From NCBI GenBank assembly GCA_041613315.1, contig JBFJHJ010000003.1:32001-96000 (forward strand): DNA of 64,000 nucleotides, read 5' to 3'. How positions within the stretch are numbered: the stretch's first letter is position 1; every line of letters starts with the position of its first letter. The position numbers are program-made. Shown piece by piece: positions 24,001 through 36,000 of the stretch. Source of the stretch: Gemmatimonadales bacterium. GTDB taxonomy: Bacteria > Gemmatimonadota > Gemmatimonadetes > Gemmatimonadales > GWC2-71-9.

Positions 24001-27000
24001 TTGTGCAGATTCCACCGCTCGAGCGTGGCCGCGAGGAAGAACCCTCCGAGAAACAGGAAGATGATGGGGTCGGCGTACGGCGCGGCGACCTGATCGATGT
24101 TGGCGACCCCGACGAGCGGCAGCAGCACGATGGGGAGGAGCGCCGTCGCTTCGAGCGGCACGACGGCAGAGAGCCACCAGACCGCCATCCAGCCCGCGAC
24201 GCCCGCGACGCGCCACGCCGGCTCGACCATCGTGCCGGGCGGCGGCAGCAGGAGCGTGGCCGCCAGGATGGCGGGTCCGGCCGCGAGGGCCACGCGGCGC
24301 GTCATCGTTGCGGAATGAGCTCGAGGGGCGTGTGCCGGGTGATGCGCGCTTTCAACTCGTCGGGCAGGGGCAACGCAAGGAACTGATCGAGGTTGCCTCG
24401 GAGGTCCCGCACCCCCGGGCTGGGCCAATCCGTGCCCCACACGACGCGCTCACCGATCTCCTCCAGACGCGGGAAGTACTCCAAGAGCTTGGCGGGAGGG
24501 ATCCCCGAGAGCTCGAGGTAGACGTTGCGATGGCGCCGCAGCACGAAGAACGCCTCGTCCATCCATAACGGCCGGCCGCCGTGCGCCATGATGATCGTGA
24601 GCGCAGGGAAGTCGATCGCGACGTCGTCCAGCTCCATCGGCCGGCCGTACTTGCAGCGCGCCCCGGGGAAGATGCTCGTGCCGGTATGGATCGTGACCGG
24701 CATCCCCCGCTCCTCGCAGCGGCGATAGATCCGGCCCAGCGCGTCGAGCCCCATCGTGTACGCATTCGCGGGATAGAGCTGGTGCGGCGGGTGGATCTTC
24801 AGGATACGCGTCCCCATCGCGAGCAGCTCCTCCACCTCGGCTTCGGGGTCCGTGGTGAAGCGGGGATGCACGCCGCCGTAGGGAATGAGCCGTTCAGGCG
24901 CCGCGCTCGCATACTCCGCGGCGAACCGGTTCGTCTCCATGGTGAAGCCCATGAGGTCCGGGCTGGGGTAATTCACCAGCCCGACGCGCCAGATTCCGGC
25001 GGCGTCCAGCGTGTCGAGGAGCGCCCGGGGGTCGTCCATGATCGCCATGAGCCGCTGCCAATGGTCCTCGTGGTCGCGACGCATCACGGCCGCCACGGCC
25101 GGCTTGAGCTGCCGCCAGGGCTGAATATGGACGTGGAGATCCGTGACGCCCGGCATCGGGGGCGTCATGGGTATGCGGCGAAACGGCTCATCGGCCCTGG
25201 AAGTCGGCGGCGCGTTTCTCGAGGAAGGCCCGCACCCCTTCGACCTTGTCCTCCGACGAGAACGCGATCCCGAAGAGCGTCTGCTCGAGGCGCACGCCTT
25301 CGTCGAGCGGCATGCGGACGCTTGCTCGCACGGCCTCTTTGATGAGCTGGAGGGCCACCGGGCTCTTCTGCGCAATCGTGCCGGCCAGCGCGCGGGCCCG
25401 CTCCATCAGCTGCTCAGGGGGTAGGACCTCGTCCACCAGCCCCACGCGGAGCGCTTCCGCGGCGGAGATCATCTCGCCGCTGTACAGCAGCTTGAACGCG
25501 TTTCCCAGCCCGACGAGACGGGGCAGCCGCTGCGTCCCGCCACCACCGGGCAGGATCCCGAGGTTGATCTCCGGCTGGCCGAGCTTGGCTTTCTCGGACG
25601 CGATGCGGATGTCGCACGCCATGGCTAGCTCGCAGCCGCCGCCCAAGCAGAAGCCGTTGATCGCCGCGATGATCGGCTTTGGGAATTGGTCGGCCGCGTC
25701 GAACAGGCCGAACGTCTTCATGACGCGGAACTGCTCCATAGGACTGCGGCCCTCGAACTCCGCGATGTCCGCACCAGCGATGAACGCCTTCTCGCCCGCC
25801 CCCGTGACGATCACCACGCGGACCTCGGCGTTCTGTTTGAGCTCGTTCAAGGCGCCCACGAACTGGCAGCGCACCGGCCCATTCAAGGCGTTCAGCTTCG
25901 CGGGGCGATTGATCGTGACGGTTGCGACGCGCCCCGCAATATCGGTCAGGACGACTTGGTCTTCGGCCATTGATAGAATCCCTTCCCGGTTTTTTGCCCG
26001 AGCTCGCCTGCCGACACCTTGCGGCGCAGGATGCCCGGCGGCGCGTAGTGAGGCTCTCCCAACTCGCGATACAAGTATTCCGCGATCGCCAGGCGGACGT
26101 CCAGCCCGACGAGGTCGCTCACGCGGAGGGGGCCCATCGGATGCCCGTATCCCAGCTCCAGGGCTGTGTCGATGTCGTCCGGCGACGCCACGCCCTGCTC
26201 GACCATGCGCATCGCCTCGAGGCCCAACACGACGCCCAGCCGAGACGAAGCGAAGCCGGGCGTGTCCTGGACGGTGATGGGGTGCTTCCCCATCGCGACC
26301 GCGGCGTCGCGTGCGCGCCGCACCACCGCCGAGTCGGTGCCTTCGGGCACCACGAGCTCGACGAGCTTCATGATGTGCACGGGATTGAAGAAGTGCATCC
26401 CCAGGACGCGCGCGGGGTGGCGGGTCGCACCGGCGATCCTGGTGACCGAGAGCGACGAGGTGTTAGTGGCCAGGATCGTGTCGGCTCCCACGAGGCGGTC
26501 CAGCCGAGCGAAGAGGTCGCGCTTGACCGCCTCGTCCTCAACCACGGCCTCGATGACCAGGTCGGCGTCGCGCACGGCGGCCTCGAGCGTGTCGGCGAGA
26601 CGGATGCGCCGCAGCGCCTGGTCGGCCGCCTCCTGCGTGAGCTTCCCGCGCTCGACGCCGCCGTGGAGGTTAGCCTGAATCCGCTCCAGCGCCGGCGCCA
26701 GCGCCTCGGGGCGGGCGTCGGTGAGAGCCGTCTCGTTGCCGGCCAGCGCCGCGATCTGAGCGATGCCGTGCCCCATGGTGCCGGCTCCCACCACGCCGAC
26801 TCGGGGGCCGCTCCGCTCGGCGACCGTCATCGCAGCGCCTTGCGGACCACGTCCGGACGGTTGGTGCAGATGCCGTCCGCCCCGAGGGCGCTGAGCTCGC
26901 GCATCCGGTCGGGGTCGTCCACGGTCCACGCGTACACCTTGAGGTCGTGCGCGTGCGCGCCCTCCACCAGGGCGCGATCGACGAACCGATCCTCCTGCCA

Positions 27001-33000: not shown

Positions 33001-36000
33001 GCCCGGTCGTACCAGTTGTAAATCCAGTTCATCATGCCGAACAGCGCGTACGCGGCCACCCGCGGGTCGGGGCGCACACCGCCATCCGCGCGGAGCGCGT
33101 CGAGGAGCCGGAGCAGGAGGGAGACGTAGGAGCGCTTGAGATGCGTGATCTCGGCGCGCCGCGCGGGCGTCAAGCTCTCCGCCTCGTGGGACAGCACCTT
33201 CATCTCGTCCATGTGCTCGGCAAAAAAGGACACATGGTGCCGGATGAAGCGCTCCAGCCGGTCCACCCCATCACTGCCGCCCTCGACCGCCCGACTGGCG
33301 CCCTCCAGCACCCGGGCGAAGCAACGCTGCTGAATCGAGAACAGCAGCTCGTCCTTGCCCTCGACGTAGTGGTACATCCCGGCGAGGCTCATGCCCGTCG
33401 CCCGCGCGAGGTCACGCATGGTGGTGGAATGGTAGCCCTTGGCGGCAAACACACGGGCCGCCGTGGCGAGCAGACGCTCGAGCCGCTGGTCGTAGGGTCG
33501 CGTTGCCATTCGAACGTTCGTTCGGAGTTTATTCGCCCGGCGAACCCGGGTCAACTGGCGGCCGGCCGCTTAACTTTTCGGCGATGCTCTCGTCTTTCGT
33601 ACGGTGACCGTCCCTGACGCCCAGCCGGGCCCGAGCGACGCCGCGCTCATCGCAGCCTGGCGCGAGGGTGACGAGAGCGCCGCCCAGGAGTTGGTGCGGC
33701 GCCATGCCAGGGCGCTCGCCGGCTTCCTGGCCGCGGCGGGCGCACGGGAGGATCTGGACGATCTCGTGCAGGAGACGTTGTTCCGGGCGTTTCGGCGGAT
33801 CGACCGGTTCCGCGGATCGGCGAGCTTTCGGACCTGGCTGCTCACGATCGGCTCGAACGCGCTCAAGGATCTGGGACGGAAGCGCCGCCGCCGCCTCGTG
33901 CTCCCGCTGGTGGACCGGGACCTCCCGGATCCGGCGAGCGATCCGCACGGCGAGCTGGTCGAGCGGGACCTCTTGGCGCGGCTGGCGGATGTCGTGCAGC
34001 AGTTGCCGCGCCTCCAGCGGGACGTGTTCCTACTCCGCGTCCGAGAGGGGCTGAGCTATGAGGAGATCGCGGGCGCCTTGGGCACCACGCCGGGCGCGGC
34101 CCGGGTGCACTACCACCACGCCGCGAAGCGGCTGAAGGGAGCAATCACCCACGGCGAGGGTGGATGATGTGGATCGTACGATCGGCGAACGGTGATAGAC
34201 GACATGATTGACAACGGACAGCTCGAGCACCTCGCCCGCCGCTTGGGTGATGAGGAAGCGCGGCGGATCGATCCCGAGGCCACCGCCCGCGCCGTGCTCC
34301 GGCGGCTGCGCGAGGCACCGCGCCCCGGCCGCTGGTGGCGGCGCCCGGCGGTGCTCCGGGTGGCGGCCGCGGCCGTGATTCTGCTGGCGGGTGCCGTCGG
34401 CCTCGAGCGGGTGCTGTCCCGCGGGGCAGGCCCAGACCCGAGTTACCCGATCCTGGTGGAGCTCGCCGACCTTGGCGCCGACGATCTTGCCGAGGTCCTC
34501 GACTCGCTCGTCTTCGAGGCACCGGTCTCCGAGCTCGTGTCCGGCGGGTTGGGCGCGCTGAGCGAGGCGCAGCTCCGCGAGATCCTCGCGGTGATGGACG
34601 GCGATTGATGCGGGGTAGGGACGGAGTTGAGGCTCGATCCTTCGGAGGTGCGATGCGGAGACTGATCATGCTGGTCGCGGCGCTGGCGCTGGCGGGAGCG
34701 CCCCTCGAGGGCCAGGACCCTCAAGCGCGCCAGGAGCAGCTCCAGCAGCAGATCGTCATGCGGTTCATGGAGAACCTGCGGGTACAGACCGCGATGACGG
34801 ACCAGCAGTTCCAGCGATTTCAGGACGTCACGCGGCGCTCGTTCGAGGCGCGGGGCGTGCTCGAGCGCCGGGAGCGCGAGCTGTGGCGTGGCCTGGAGGG
34901 GCAGATGCGCCCGGGCGTCGCCGCCAACGCCGACAGTGTCGCTCGGCTGCTCGACGGGCTGACACAGCTCGCGGGGGAGCGGGCGGCCCAGCTTCGCCAA
35001 GACCAGCAGGTGTATGCGGAGTTCCTGACACCGGTACAGCGAGCACAGGTGACGATGGGGTTCCGCCGACTCCAGAATCTGGTCGAGCAGCGGATGCGCC
35101 AGCGCGACATGCCGCCCGCCCGGCGGCGTCCGCCGGAGTTGTGAGCCTCGCGTCCCTCCCGGCGTCTTTCGGTTCGACCCGTCCGTCCATCCGTTCGGCT
35201 GACCCGCTATATTCCCCGCGGTCGCCCGAGTGGTGGAATGGCAGACACGCGGGACTCAAAATCCCGTGCCGGCAACGGCGTGCGAGTTCGACTCTCGCCT
35301 CGGGCACTATCCGACCTCATCTCGGCGTCCCTCTGACCGTGCCTCCCCGCATGTGCATGAAGCCAGCCGCGCGCGACGGCTTTGCATGCGCCGCTGCGGC
35401 TTGACACCGCCGGGCGCGACGATCCTCTTCTAGTGCATCCGCCGCACTACCGACCAGTGCCGGTGGCCCGTCGCCTGCACGTCGCCTGGTGCGGCGATCC
35501 CGCCGCCGGGCCGACGTCGAGATCCAGTAGCAGTGCGAGCGCCCACGCATTACCCAGGGGGGTACCCATGTCCAAAGCACCACGCACCGTTGCGCTCGTT
35601 GCGGCGGTCGGCCTCGCGACCCTCGGCTGCGAGCGTTCGCCCGACGTCGCCGGACCGCTGTTCGGCGTCGCGGGAGCGAATCGCGTCGTCCAGTCGGTGA
35701 CCGGCAGCGGTCACTTCACGTCGGGCGGCGAGTTCCGAACCTTCGCGTTCAACGCCGTCCGGCGGGCCGACGGGACGGTCACCGGCGAGTACCAGGGCCA
35801 CAACCGAGCCGCCGACGTCCACTGGCACGGCAACGTCACGTGCTTCACGGTCATCGGGAACCAGGCCTGGATCGGCGGCACGACTGAGACGTCGAGCGAT
35901 CCGAATCTCATCGTTCCGGGGACGCAATCCGGATTCCGGGTCGCCGACAACGGCGAGGGAAGCAACACGCCGCCGGATCAGATCAGCCTCCAATTCATCA

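Follow-up and report, generated by a model that had tools for sequence, protein, structure and literature searches.

A compact BoxB-type epoxidase operon of Gemmatimonadota that may encode an aerobic benzoyl-CoA pathway

The described system closest to the locus reported here is the Box pathway of Azoarcus/Aromatoleum evansii (BoxAB, BoxC and BoxD; PDB 3PER, 3PM5, 3Q1G and 2W3P), whose oxygenase is likewise a single chain. BoxB does not accept phenylacetyl-CoA (PMC4498308), its selectivity is governed by the T210-D211 peptide (PMC5489048), and BoxR senses benzoyl-CoA (PMC4424350). The Paa route (PaaABC(D)E, PaaG, PaaZ, PaaJ, PaaF, PaaH and PaaR) is the second point of reference. Both routes yield 3,4-dehydroadipyl-CoA, on which isomerase, hydratase, dehydrogenase and thiolase act (PMC4498308), and a Paa-like tail therefore cannot tell Box from Paa. 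The label 'hybrid Box/Paa' given to this locus in the first-pass annotation is not supported as it stands for the same reason, as its downstream enzymes are common to both routes.

Operon organization and control region

The window analysed is a 64,000-nucleotide stretch of a Gemmatimonadales genome that is 82.9% complete. Ten tightly packed genes occupy positions 24302-33509 on its minus strand, with intergenic gaps of -25 to +19 nt and a conserved operator in front (Table 1). The operon described in the first-pass annotation is real and all of the genes named there are present, but croC and a DASS transporter had been left out. Of 128 relatives, 80 were kept, 79 with Gemmatimonadota titles, in agreement with the earlier description; the core genes recur in 34-35 of the 35 full loci (at least 7 kb upstream and at least 5 kb downstream), compared with 37-39 of 39 in that description. 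Members of the family also occur in clades outside Gemmatimonadota. No relative was found on viral contigs.

Table 1. Features of the operon and its flanks, numbered along the window
Feature	Position	Strand	Basis
DASS/SLC13 anion symporter, variable	22821..24305	-	overlaps last operon gene by 4 nt; 9/35 full loci
Amidohydro_2 hydrolase	24302..25168	-	34/35 full loci; 8/80 other-clade loci
croC, PaaF-like enoyl-CoA hydratase, often lost	25188..25970	-	profile match; 11/35 full loci
3-hydroxyacyl-CoA dehydrogenase, putative PaaH role	25946..26830	-	profile match
GDPD-family protein, probable passenger	26827..27498	-	family match
Compact BoxB-type di-iron epoxidase (predicted), 370 aa	27495..28607	-	fold, ligands, PDB matches
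croB, PaaG-like isomerase	28620..29414	-	Asp in LHPDWGG stretch, no catalytic Glu pair
3-oxoadipyl-CoA thiolase-like, PcaF/PaaJ group	29411..30607	-	542 bits vs cut-off 605
Aldehyde dehydrogenase, proposed BoxD or PaaZ aldehyde-domain role	30624..32057	-	profile match
croA, 279-aa crotonase, proposed single-domain ring hydrolase	32058..32897	-	co-occurrence with epoxidase, catalytic Glu pair
TetR repressor, acyl-CoA-sensing group (TetR_C_24)	32904..33509	-	family match
Palindromic operator CGAAC-N4-GTTCG	33511..33524		between promoter and tetR start; fits Thermus PaaR consensus
Sigma-70-like promoter TTGACC-17-TAAACT	33526..33554	-	single site in 14.5 kb

The case for the promoter rests on its position and not on its score, since 0.8 sites would be expected by chance in the region scanned. 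The operator consensus, CNAACGNNCGTTNG, is that given for Thermus PaaR (PMC6651687). Predicted operators lie upstream of tetR in all 50 loci tested (52 matches in total in 1.24 Mb), in the strict form in 34 and as a looser palindrome in all 50; this genome holds eight further copies, all within called genes. In two related genomes, canonical boxCB clusters with a ligase are headed by the same TetR type and operator.

Among the lower-pathway genes, the thiolase is 54-59% identical to those of two canonical paa clusters. The best model for croB is PaaG, as reported earlier (223 bits, cut-off 345), and croB groups apart from the PaaG of canonical clusters. The GDPD gene, found in 35/35 full Gemmatimonadota loci versus 0/80 loci of other clades, was set aside as a pathway enzyme. 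The Amidohydro_2 hydrolase is possibly a lactonase for side products; a 39% homologue adjoins a long boxC in Nonomuraea.

The compact epoxidase, its crotonase partner and its electron supply

The earlier scores for the epoxidase were reproduced: its best PDB match is BoxB (3per, E = 3.2e-56, versus 1.5e-5 for PaaA), and it scores 229.5 bits against the boxB model (TIGR03225), below the cut-off of 499.1. With the PaaA model it reaches 39.4 bits (cut-off 280). Its predicted fold, modelled from a 64-sequence alignment with a pLDDT of 94.9 (single-sequence prediction, only 37.8), has a TMq of 0.91 to BoxB versus 0.52-0.54 to PaaA. All six iron ligands are kept: E82, E112, H115, D171, E200 and H203 correspond to BoxB E120, E150, H153, D211, E240 and H243. 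Five of seven BoxB second-shell residues are also kept (Q116, T119, S123, F193 and F203), positions at which PaaA differs. The two changes, F206Y and T210I (T210I/V among homologues), are fixed in 120/120 close homologues. The compact protein carries the motifs QGDTE and IDR, compared with HAHSE and VDG in PaaA, and a quick tree places the clade of long BoxB proteins inside the compact family. The genome holds one PF05138 gene and no PaaB/PaaC partner set. The model and matches support the reading that this compact, BoxB-type aryl-CoA epoxidase is intact, and its operon holds no reductase.

The crotonase croA is present in 96 of 97 genomes with an epoxidase (compact BoxB or the A* cassette described below) versus 0/104 others, and is absent from 38/38 canonical PaaA genomes. 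Its two catalytic glutamates, E130 and E151, are invariant in 24/24 relatives, and it matches only the N-domain of BoxC (37%). The first-pass annotation had noted the lack of a BoxC partner; this holds for two-domain BoxC, absent by tblastn from all 80 loci, but overlooks croA, which tracks the epoxidase and probably fills the role of BoxC with one domain. Similarity does not identify croA as a plain BoxC: 2W3P ranks below approximately 40 general hydratases in a profile search, and the branch joining croA and BoxC has support of only 93/88. The top solved relative is PDB 2PPY, an uncharacterised enoyl-CoA hydratase (Geobacillus kaustophilus GK1992) that shares a PRFK..FCL..NETL stretch. It may be connected with the benzoate route reported for a thermophilic Bacillus.

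By tblastn, BoxA, BoxC, benzoate-CoA ligase, ferredoxin, FprA-like and NuoE/F-like genes occur in 0/80 loci, and searches of this genome found no BoxA and no PF00175 reductase; the earlier statement that the operon has no reductase stands. BoxA was found in 0/5 further genomes and PF00175 in 1/5 near-closed ones. A lack of BoxA is not peculiar to the compact form: the canonical long boxBC clusters of two related genomes have none either; in another clade, NuoE/NuoF-like reductase genes follow the epoxidase gene. The FprA-like protein, previously suggested as donor, was rejected as a dedicated reductase, as it occurs in only 16/45 compact-BoxB and 21/66 epoxidase-free genomes. No orthologue of the operon-encoded NuoF-like reductase was found in Gemmatimonadota, where best matches are 37-44% identical in 42/43 genomes; those in this genome are complex I and formate dehydrogenase-type subunits. 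Electrons are probably borrowed from a non-dedicated donor, with a ferredoxin or a NuoEF-type diaphorase as weakly indicated candidates.

Exchange with a multi-subunit cassette

Sister genomes have this operon with a five-gene cassette (A*) in the place of compact BoxB: PaaA/D/B/C-like genes and a small Cys-rich gene. This exchange does not appear in the first-pass annotation. A* is found in Gemmatimonadota, Thermus plasmids and haloarchaea, and scores 123-129 bits against the PaaA model, below the cut-off of 280. Among 201 genomes, which are related so that counts are not independent (45 compact-BoxB, 52 A*, 38 canonical PaaA and 66 epoxidase-free), the three forms are mutually exclusive: compact BoxB and A* occur together in 0/97, and canonical PaaA with either in 0/38. 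In other orders the lower operon lacks an adjacent epoxidase, and A* lies elsewhere in 52/52 of those genomes. On Thermus and haloarchaeal plasmids, A* clusters come with a croA homologue and a gene of the benzoate-CoA ligase family; those of Thermus and Haladaptatus also hold a PaaY-like gene. Our literature search found no functional paper on A*, which is annotated as phenylacetate catabolic proteins; if the benzoyl-CoA reading below holds, it should be a multi-subunit benzoyl-CoA epoxidase that has been mislabelled.

Proposed pathway and comparison with known systems

We propose, with a probability of roughly 0.55, that the operon encodes a compact pathway of the Box type for aerobic benzoyl-CoA breakdown. 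The TetR repressor would leave the operator in response to a CoA thioester, and the single-chain di-iron protein, judged by fold, ligands and pocket, would epoxidise benzoyl-CoA with O2. croA would then hydrolyse the epoxide/oxepin to 3,4-dehydroadipyl-CoA semialdehyde and formate, as BoxC does, and the aldehyde dehydrogenase, croB, croC or another hydratase, the dehydrogenase and the thiolase would, given their families, lead to succinyl-CoA and acetyl-CoA. Benzoyl-CoA would be supplied elsewhere, by a benzoate-CoA ligase family gene or a 4-hydroxybenzoyl-CoA reductase-like trimer, and the A* complex can fill the epoxidase slot instead, an exchange seen as gene content.

Benzoyl-CoA is the likeliest substrate because related operons, whose epoxidases have the same two pocket changes, hold a BzdR/BoxR-family regulator (loci L137 and L139; 268 and 276 bits, cut-off 204) or a 4-hydroxybenzoyl-CoA reductase alpha subunit over cut-off (L169 and L204). 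HcrA-like genes occur in 63/67 croA-type genomes versus 8/80 others, and of those eight, five were inspected, all of them in operons of the benzoyl-CoA reductase type. Close homologues of this genome's Bcr-like cluster occur in 36/97 croA-type versus 2/104 other genomes; restriction of Bcr to croA-type genomes would be too strong a claim, as a second type (approximately 33% identity) occurs in five others. PaaK, over cut-off in 0/5 genomes, also speaks for benzoyl-CoA. Several findings weigh against it. In Gemmatimonadota, the HcrA-like and Bcr-like proteins stay under their family cut-offs. This genome shows no hcr genes, and three xanthine-oxidase-family clusters found in it by motif are not Hcr. 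TIGR02262 (benzoate-CoA ligase family) is over cut-off in 32/45 compact-BoxB genomes and not in the other 13; this genome has a family member over cut-off, but in an anthranilate/tryptophan cluster away from the operon. The low similarity of croA to BoxC counts on the same side.

It is unlikely, if still a serious alternative, that the operon serves phenylalanine breakdown by a Paa route, with a single BoxB-fold protein in place of PaaABC(D)E. Phenylpyruvate would give phenylacetyl-CoA directly via a 2-oxoacid dehydrogenase, croB would make the oxepin, croA would hydrolyse it instead of the PaaZ hotdog domain, and the remaining genes would serve as PaaZ aldehyde domain, PaaJ, PaaF and PaaH. 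Each gene then maps one-to-one and no ligase is needed; the PaaR-type operator and TetR, the PaaY-like gene and the mutual exclusion fit as well, as does phenylalanine hydroxylase, found in 7/97 epoxidase genomes (5/45 compact-BoxB, 2/52 A*) versus 65/104 others (48/66 epoxidase-free). The operator, the exclusion of canonical PaaA, the scarce hydroxylase and the absence of a ligase from all 80 loci also count against the benzoyl-CoA reading. However, the exclusion may stem from few lineage events, and HmgA occurs in 1/201 genomes, which makes the hydroxylase an uncertain sign of a catabolic alternative. Further against phenylacetyl-CoA are the BoxB-like pocket, given that BoxB refuses this substrate, the BoxR and Hcr neighbours of same-pocket homologues, and the lack of croA in canonical PaaA genomes. 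Against benzoyl-CoA, in turn, near-closed genomes revealed none of the known ways of making it from phenylalanine: PadG over cut-off and HPPD were each found in 0/5, with at most one aromatic ammonia-lyase per genome. Searches for HmgA, HPPD, PadG and IOR did not reveal a path from aromatic amino acids to the epoxidase.

Two other readings are less probable. F206Y and T210I/V, which fall where BoxB selectivity is set and are fixed among close homologues, could reshape the selectivity face for a substituted aroyl-CoA (amino-, hydroxy- or methyl-benzoyl-CoA) or for both benzoyl- and phenylacetyl-CoA. The sub-threshold Hcr-like and Bcr-like partners and the position of this genome's ligase, in an anthranilate/tryptophan cluster, fit this improbable reading, but that cluster already serves anthraniloyl-CoA with its own monooxygenase/reductase (over cut-off), and BoxR-linked homologues have identical pocket changes. 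We consider it very improbable that there is no ring epoxidase in vivo, the protein being an epoxide-removing deoxygenase or a non-aromatic acyl-CoA oxygenase in a general beta-oxidation unit. The operon holds neither reductase nor ligase, in other orders no epoxidase adjoins its lower part, and the closest solved TetR matches include non-aromatic acyl-CoA sensors; yet those other genomes have A* elsewhere, ligands and pocket are intact, and there are links to BoxR, Hcr and ligases.

Beyond the benzoyl-CoA reading, we tentatively suggest a third widespread aryl-CoA ring-epoxidation system, defined by croA. Its oxygenase would be either compact BoxB (the ancestral form of BoxB) or a PaaABCD-like complex; the two would have changed places repeatedly within a single operon and would draw on electrons that are borrowed or of NuoEF type. 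Taken furthest, both oxygenases would share a substrate derived from aromatic amino acids, via a novel benzoyl-CoA route or with a single chain replacing the whole phenylacetyl-CoA epoxidase complex. Should the proposed pathway hold, close to half of the sampled Gemmatimonadota genomes (97/201), plus soil clades beyond, open aryl-CoA rings aerobically by a route that goes unnoticed or wrongly named when standard boxABC and paa markers are used. Many clusters now called 'PaaA-like' on Thermus plasmids and in haloarchaea would be reassigned, the structural subunits PaaB and PaaC would be tradeable for one chain, and a small monomer would be at hand for work on dearomatising epoxidation and on how it is supplied with electrons. 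Judged from sequence, this would be a variant of known aromatic-breakdown chemistry and not a new kind.

The locus resembles the Box system in its fold, six iron ligands, five of seven second-shell residues, and a crotonase and aldehyde dehydrogenase with a beta-oxidation tail. It differs in an oxygenase approximately 100 aa shorter than BoxB (37% identity, F206Y and T210I), no BoxA in the genome, a one-domain crotonase in contrast to two-domain BoxC, TetR in place of BoxR, and an unlinked ligase. With Paa it shares PaaG-, PaaF-, PaaH- and PaaJ-like genes, the PaaR-type operator and the TetR group, but its operon lacks PaaA/B/C/D/E, PaaK and the PaaZ hotdog domain. A* systems share with it the operon, the regulator and croA as partner (50-84% identity between orthologues), with QGDTE and FDR motifs in A*; the compact form uses one gene in contrast to five, and the two oxygenases are approximately 25% identical.

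Gene content and operator of the operon

In the source genome (2.63 Mb, 82.9% complete) the window spans contig C3:32001-96000 and carries the operon as a run from tetR to a DASS transporter, with intergenic gaps of -25 to +19 nt. The first-pass annotation had described a hybrid Box/Paa operon lacking a reductase or BoxC partner, and its scores for the operon proteins were reproduced when rerun. Among 80 related loci, nearly all from Gemmatimonadota, 35 have long flanks (at least 7 kb upstream and 5 kb downstream); core genes are present in 34-35 of these, croC in just 11. Queries for BoxA, BoxC, a ligase, a ferredoxin and NuoE/F matched 0/80 related loci. 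The palindrome precedes tetR in 50/50 loci tested, with 52 matches over 1.24 Mb in total.

Features of the operon in the window (positions in nt)
Feature	Position	Strand	Remarks
Palindrome CGAAC-N4-GTTCG	33511-33524		sigma-70-like promoter on one side, tetR start on the other
tetR	32904-33509	-	first gene of the operon
croA, crotonase	32058-32897	-	after tetR
aldehyde dehydrogenase, thiolase, crotonase croB		-	between croA and the di-iron gene
di-iron gene (compact protein)	27495-28607	-	370 aa
GDPD-family gene, 3-hydroxyacyl-CoA dehydrogenase, crotonase croC		-	between the di-iron gene and the amidohydrolase
amidohydrolase	24302-25168	-	
DASS transporter		-	past the amidohydrolase; last gene of the run

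Divergent ECF sigma factor, anti-sigma-like and Spy-like genes (window 33604-35144) lie upstream of the operon in approximately half of the 80 loci, and rng-rplU-rpmA lies downstream, indicating an old chromosomal site. As read from sequence, the acidobacterial-type operon (L169, L182-L216) has uracil-DNA-glycosylase-like, rhodanese-like, ArsC-like and macro-domain-like genes in the passenger places held by GDPD in the window's operon. A single record (P0112) is a 565-aa protein with di-iron and GDPD domains, possibly a read-through artefact.

The compact oxygenase and its exchange with a PaaA-like cassette

A model of the compact protein from a 64-sequence alignment (pLDDT 94.9) matches BoxB at a TMq of 0.91 and PaaA at 0.52-0.54. 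The protein keeps the six iron ligands of BoxB and, except for F206Y and T210I, the second-shell residues listed in PMC5489048. All 120 of 120 close homologues share this pattern, Val replacing Ile in two; in other clades it is the version with Val that recurs, in 75/81 matches. Compared to BoxB, the 100 missing residues come from both the N- and the C-terminal end and from two internal segments that do not belong to the ligand helices. In a quick 42-row tree with long branches and no bootstrap, the long BoxB sequences make up a single clade (99) inside the compact forms, and this nesting suggests that the compact form is the older state. The compact protein probably works like BoxB but falls outside the BoxB family by score and by partners.

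The distribution of the operon was followed across the phylum in the source genome and 200 others sampled at ≥90% completeness (201 genomes in total), all counts being of related genomes with few independent events behind them. Four are flagged as unpublished (G153 and G178, compact; G093, A*; G053, none) and alter no pattern. PF05138 matches occur in 135/201: the compact protein (identity ≥69%) accounts for 45 genomes, canonical PaaA for 38 and a divergent form, A*, for 52; the latter two were sorted by E-value band, with six loci of the one and eight of the other fetched and checked by sequence. None of the 201 falls into two of these classes. Three fetched genomes from the family to which the window belongs (L086, L087, L095) contain the same operon without the compact gene; its orthologues are 50-84% identical, and the genes upstream are the same as in the window. 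Between tetR and croA they have genes resembling PaaA, PaaD, PaaB and PaaC, plus a small gene rich in Cys. By coordinates, A* is directly upstream of croA in six more of the 11 such genomes. A tree of croA and the dehydrogenase from 37 loci puts these A* operons at two separate points within the compact-BoxB operons, so more than one exchange took place. A* scores below the PaaA cut-off (123-129 vs 280 bits), shares the QGDTE and Asp-Arg ligand motif with BoxB, and does not have the HAHSE of PaaA. No description of the A* exchange, of a compact form of BoxB or of a BoxC with one domain came up in a literature search; the primary Box papers may mention them.

Five canonical Gemmatimonadota paaABCD clusters (L085, L088, L090, L096, L098) have no adjacent paaE, two of them adjoining 2-oxoacid dehydrogenase E1-like genes; L089 has paaE.

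The crotonase croA and electron supply

croA orthologues (E ≤1e-90) are present in 44/45 compact-BoxB and 52/52 A* genomes, and in 0/38 PaaA genomes and 0/66 genomes without PF05138. croA is 37% identical to the BoxC N-domain, to which it aligns better than croB or croC, and the two share SAGANI, FC..NET and the pair of glutamates; not every member retains the Cys of the FC motif. According to PMC4498308, only the N-domain of BoxC is active, BoxC is required for BoxB turnover, and small amounts of reductase are enough for BoxB. A tree separates croA and both BoxC domains from 23 other crotonases at 93/88 support, under the starred level; by profile score against croA, BoxC is far below general hydratases. 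The case for croA as the ring hydrolase thus comes from co-occurrence and motifs and not from identity, and croA would probably catalyze this step.

Outside Gemmatimonadota, 80 metagenome loci were kept out of at least 583, their clade names (Acidobacteriota, Binatia) being taken from named homologues and Atlas clusters and not from the loci themselves. A NuoF-like flavoprotein and a thioredoxin-like [2Fe-2S] ferredoxin accompany the compact gene in 21 and 22 of these 80, respectively, mostly directly behind it; no close orthologue of the flavoprotein was found in 43 Gemmatimonadota genomes. A 2Fe-2S ferredoxin adjoins A* in three haloarchaeal clusters, and a NuoF-domain gene is near the cassette in L107, a haloarchaeal plasmid locus. 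PF00175 reductases occur in 1/5 near-closed Gemmatimonadota genomes. The source genome encodes a 7Fe ferredoxin, a second small ferredoxin-like gene, 2-oxoacid:ferredoxin oxidoreductases, Rnf-like genes, an FprA-like protein and two NuoF-family subunits, any of which could be the donor to the compact protein. Long boxBC clusters without adjacent boxA are found in Nonomuraea and G186, with no BoxA matches in G186 or G144, and box clusters without BoxA are also recorded in PMC10803450.

Candidate substrates and relation to known systems

Benzoyl-CoA is the substrate that we favour, at slightly better than even odds (approximately 0.55). In the 80 loci from other clades, a BzdR/BoxR-family regulator is over cut-off in two and an HcrA homologue is found in seven, six of which also have croA; the two HcrA homologues scanned are both over the 4-hydroxybenzoyl-CoA reductase cut-off. 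BzdR/BoxR recognise benzoyl-CoA (PMC4424350). A count taking in 67 of the 97 croA-type genomes and 80 of the 104 others found HcrA-like genes (544-893 bits; cut-off 995) in 63/67 (39/43 compact, 24/24 A*) and 8/80, respectively; of the latter eight, the 5/5 fetched lie in benzoyl-CoA reductase-type operons. There are none in the 82.9% complete source genome, where hcrCAB may sit in an assembly gap since contig C49 ends inside the gene run that precedes it in relatives. Twelve croA-type genomes (L227-L238) have a stand-alone HcrCAB-like trimer (800-890 bits vs 995) without a linked ligase or transferase. Loci L239-L243, from other Gemmatimonadota, are large operons with two Bcr-like subunit sets, an HcrC-HcrA fusion, oah, dch, a thiolase and a 750-770 aa protein fused to a Bcr-like domain.

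The source genome also contains a TetR-headed Bcr-like cluster (contig C4:16240-24972, L131), a putative divergent class I benzoyl-CoA reductase pathway. Its genes score best with the models oah, dch, bcrC, bcrB, two activases and had, every bcr model staying under cut-off. Close homologues occur in 36/97 croA-type vs 2/104 other genomes, and the cluster is kept in 10/10 fetched relatives, in four of which it adjoins a tryptophanase/tyrosine phenol-lyase-like gene. A* clusters of Thermus and haloarchaeal plasmids hold croA homologues as well as ligases that score best against the benzoate-CoA ligase family model (399 and 371 bits vs 375). On two haloarchaeal plasmids (L106, L107), A* adjoins UbiD decarboxylases, a CoA transferase pair, a ligase, a 2Fe-2S ferredoxin and a GNAT gene, a set that resembles a phthalate-to-benzoyl-CoA route.

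Against benzoyl-CoA, no ligase is linked to the operon in the 80 related loci, and 13/45 compact-BoxB genomes have none over cut-off. The ligase copy of the source genome (478.7 bits) adjoins tryptophan dioxygenase and anthraniloyl/salicylyl-CoA monooxygenase. The tryptophan-to-anthranilate cluster in which they lie (C5:34544-44585, L084) comprises this benzoate-CoA ligase family gene, the anthraniloyl/salicylyl-CoA monooxygenase-reductase (over cut-off), the tryptophan dioxygenase and a kynureninase-like gene, with nos-like genes, as read from sequence, directly upstream. A substituted aroyl-CoA, or both benzoyl- and phenylacetyl-CoA, would be a doubtful substrate, and any other role is very improbable.

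Phenylacetyl-CoA alone is unlikely, if less so than these. Phenylalanine hydroxylase occurs in 7/97 croA-type, 17/38 PaaA and 48/66 epoxidase-free genomes (72 in all), a distribution suggestive of alternative phenylalanine routes; HmgA is found in 1/201 genomes (E 1e-15), so the hydroxylase may not mark a catabolic alternative. In five genomes, PadG, HPPD and IOR were each absent over cut-off (5/5) and at most one aromatic ammonia-lyase was present, so no established route leading from phenylalanine to benzoyl-CoA was visible there. In sequence, the operator is identical to the consensus for PaaR of Thermus, a phenylacetyl-CoA sensor (PMC6651687). In favour of benzoyl-CoA, canonical boxCB-plus-ligase clusters (L097, L128) likewise begin with this operator and a TetR homologue. 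With benzoyl-CoA as its probable substrate, the compact BoxB-type operon would encode a variant of known ring-epoxidation chemistry.
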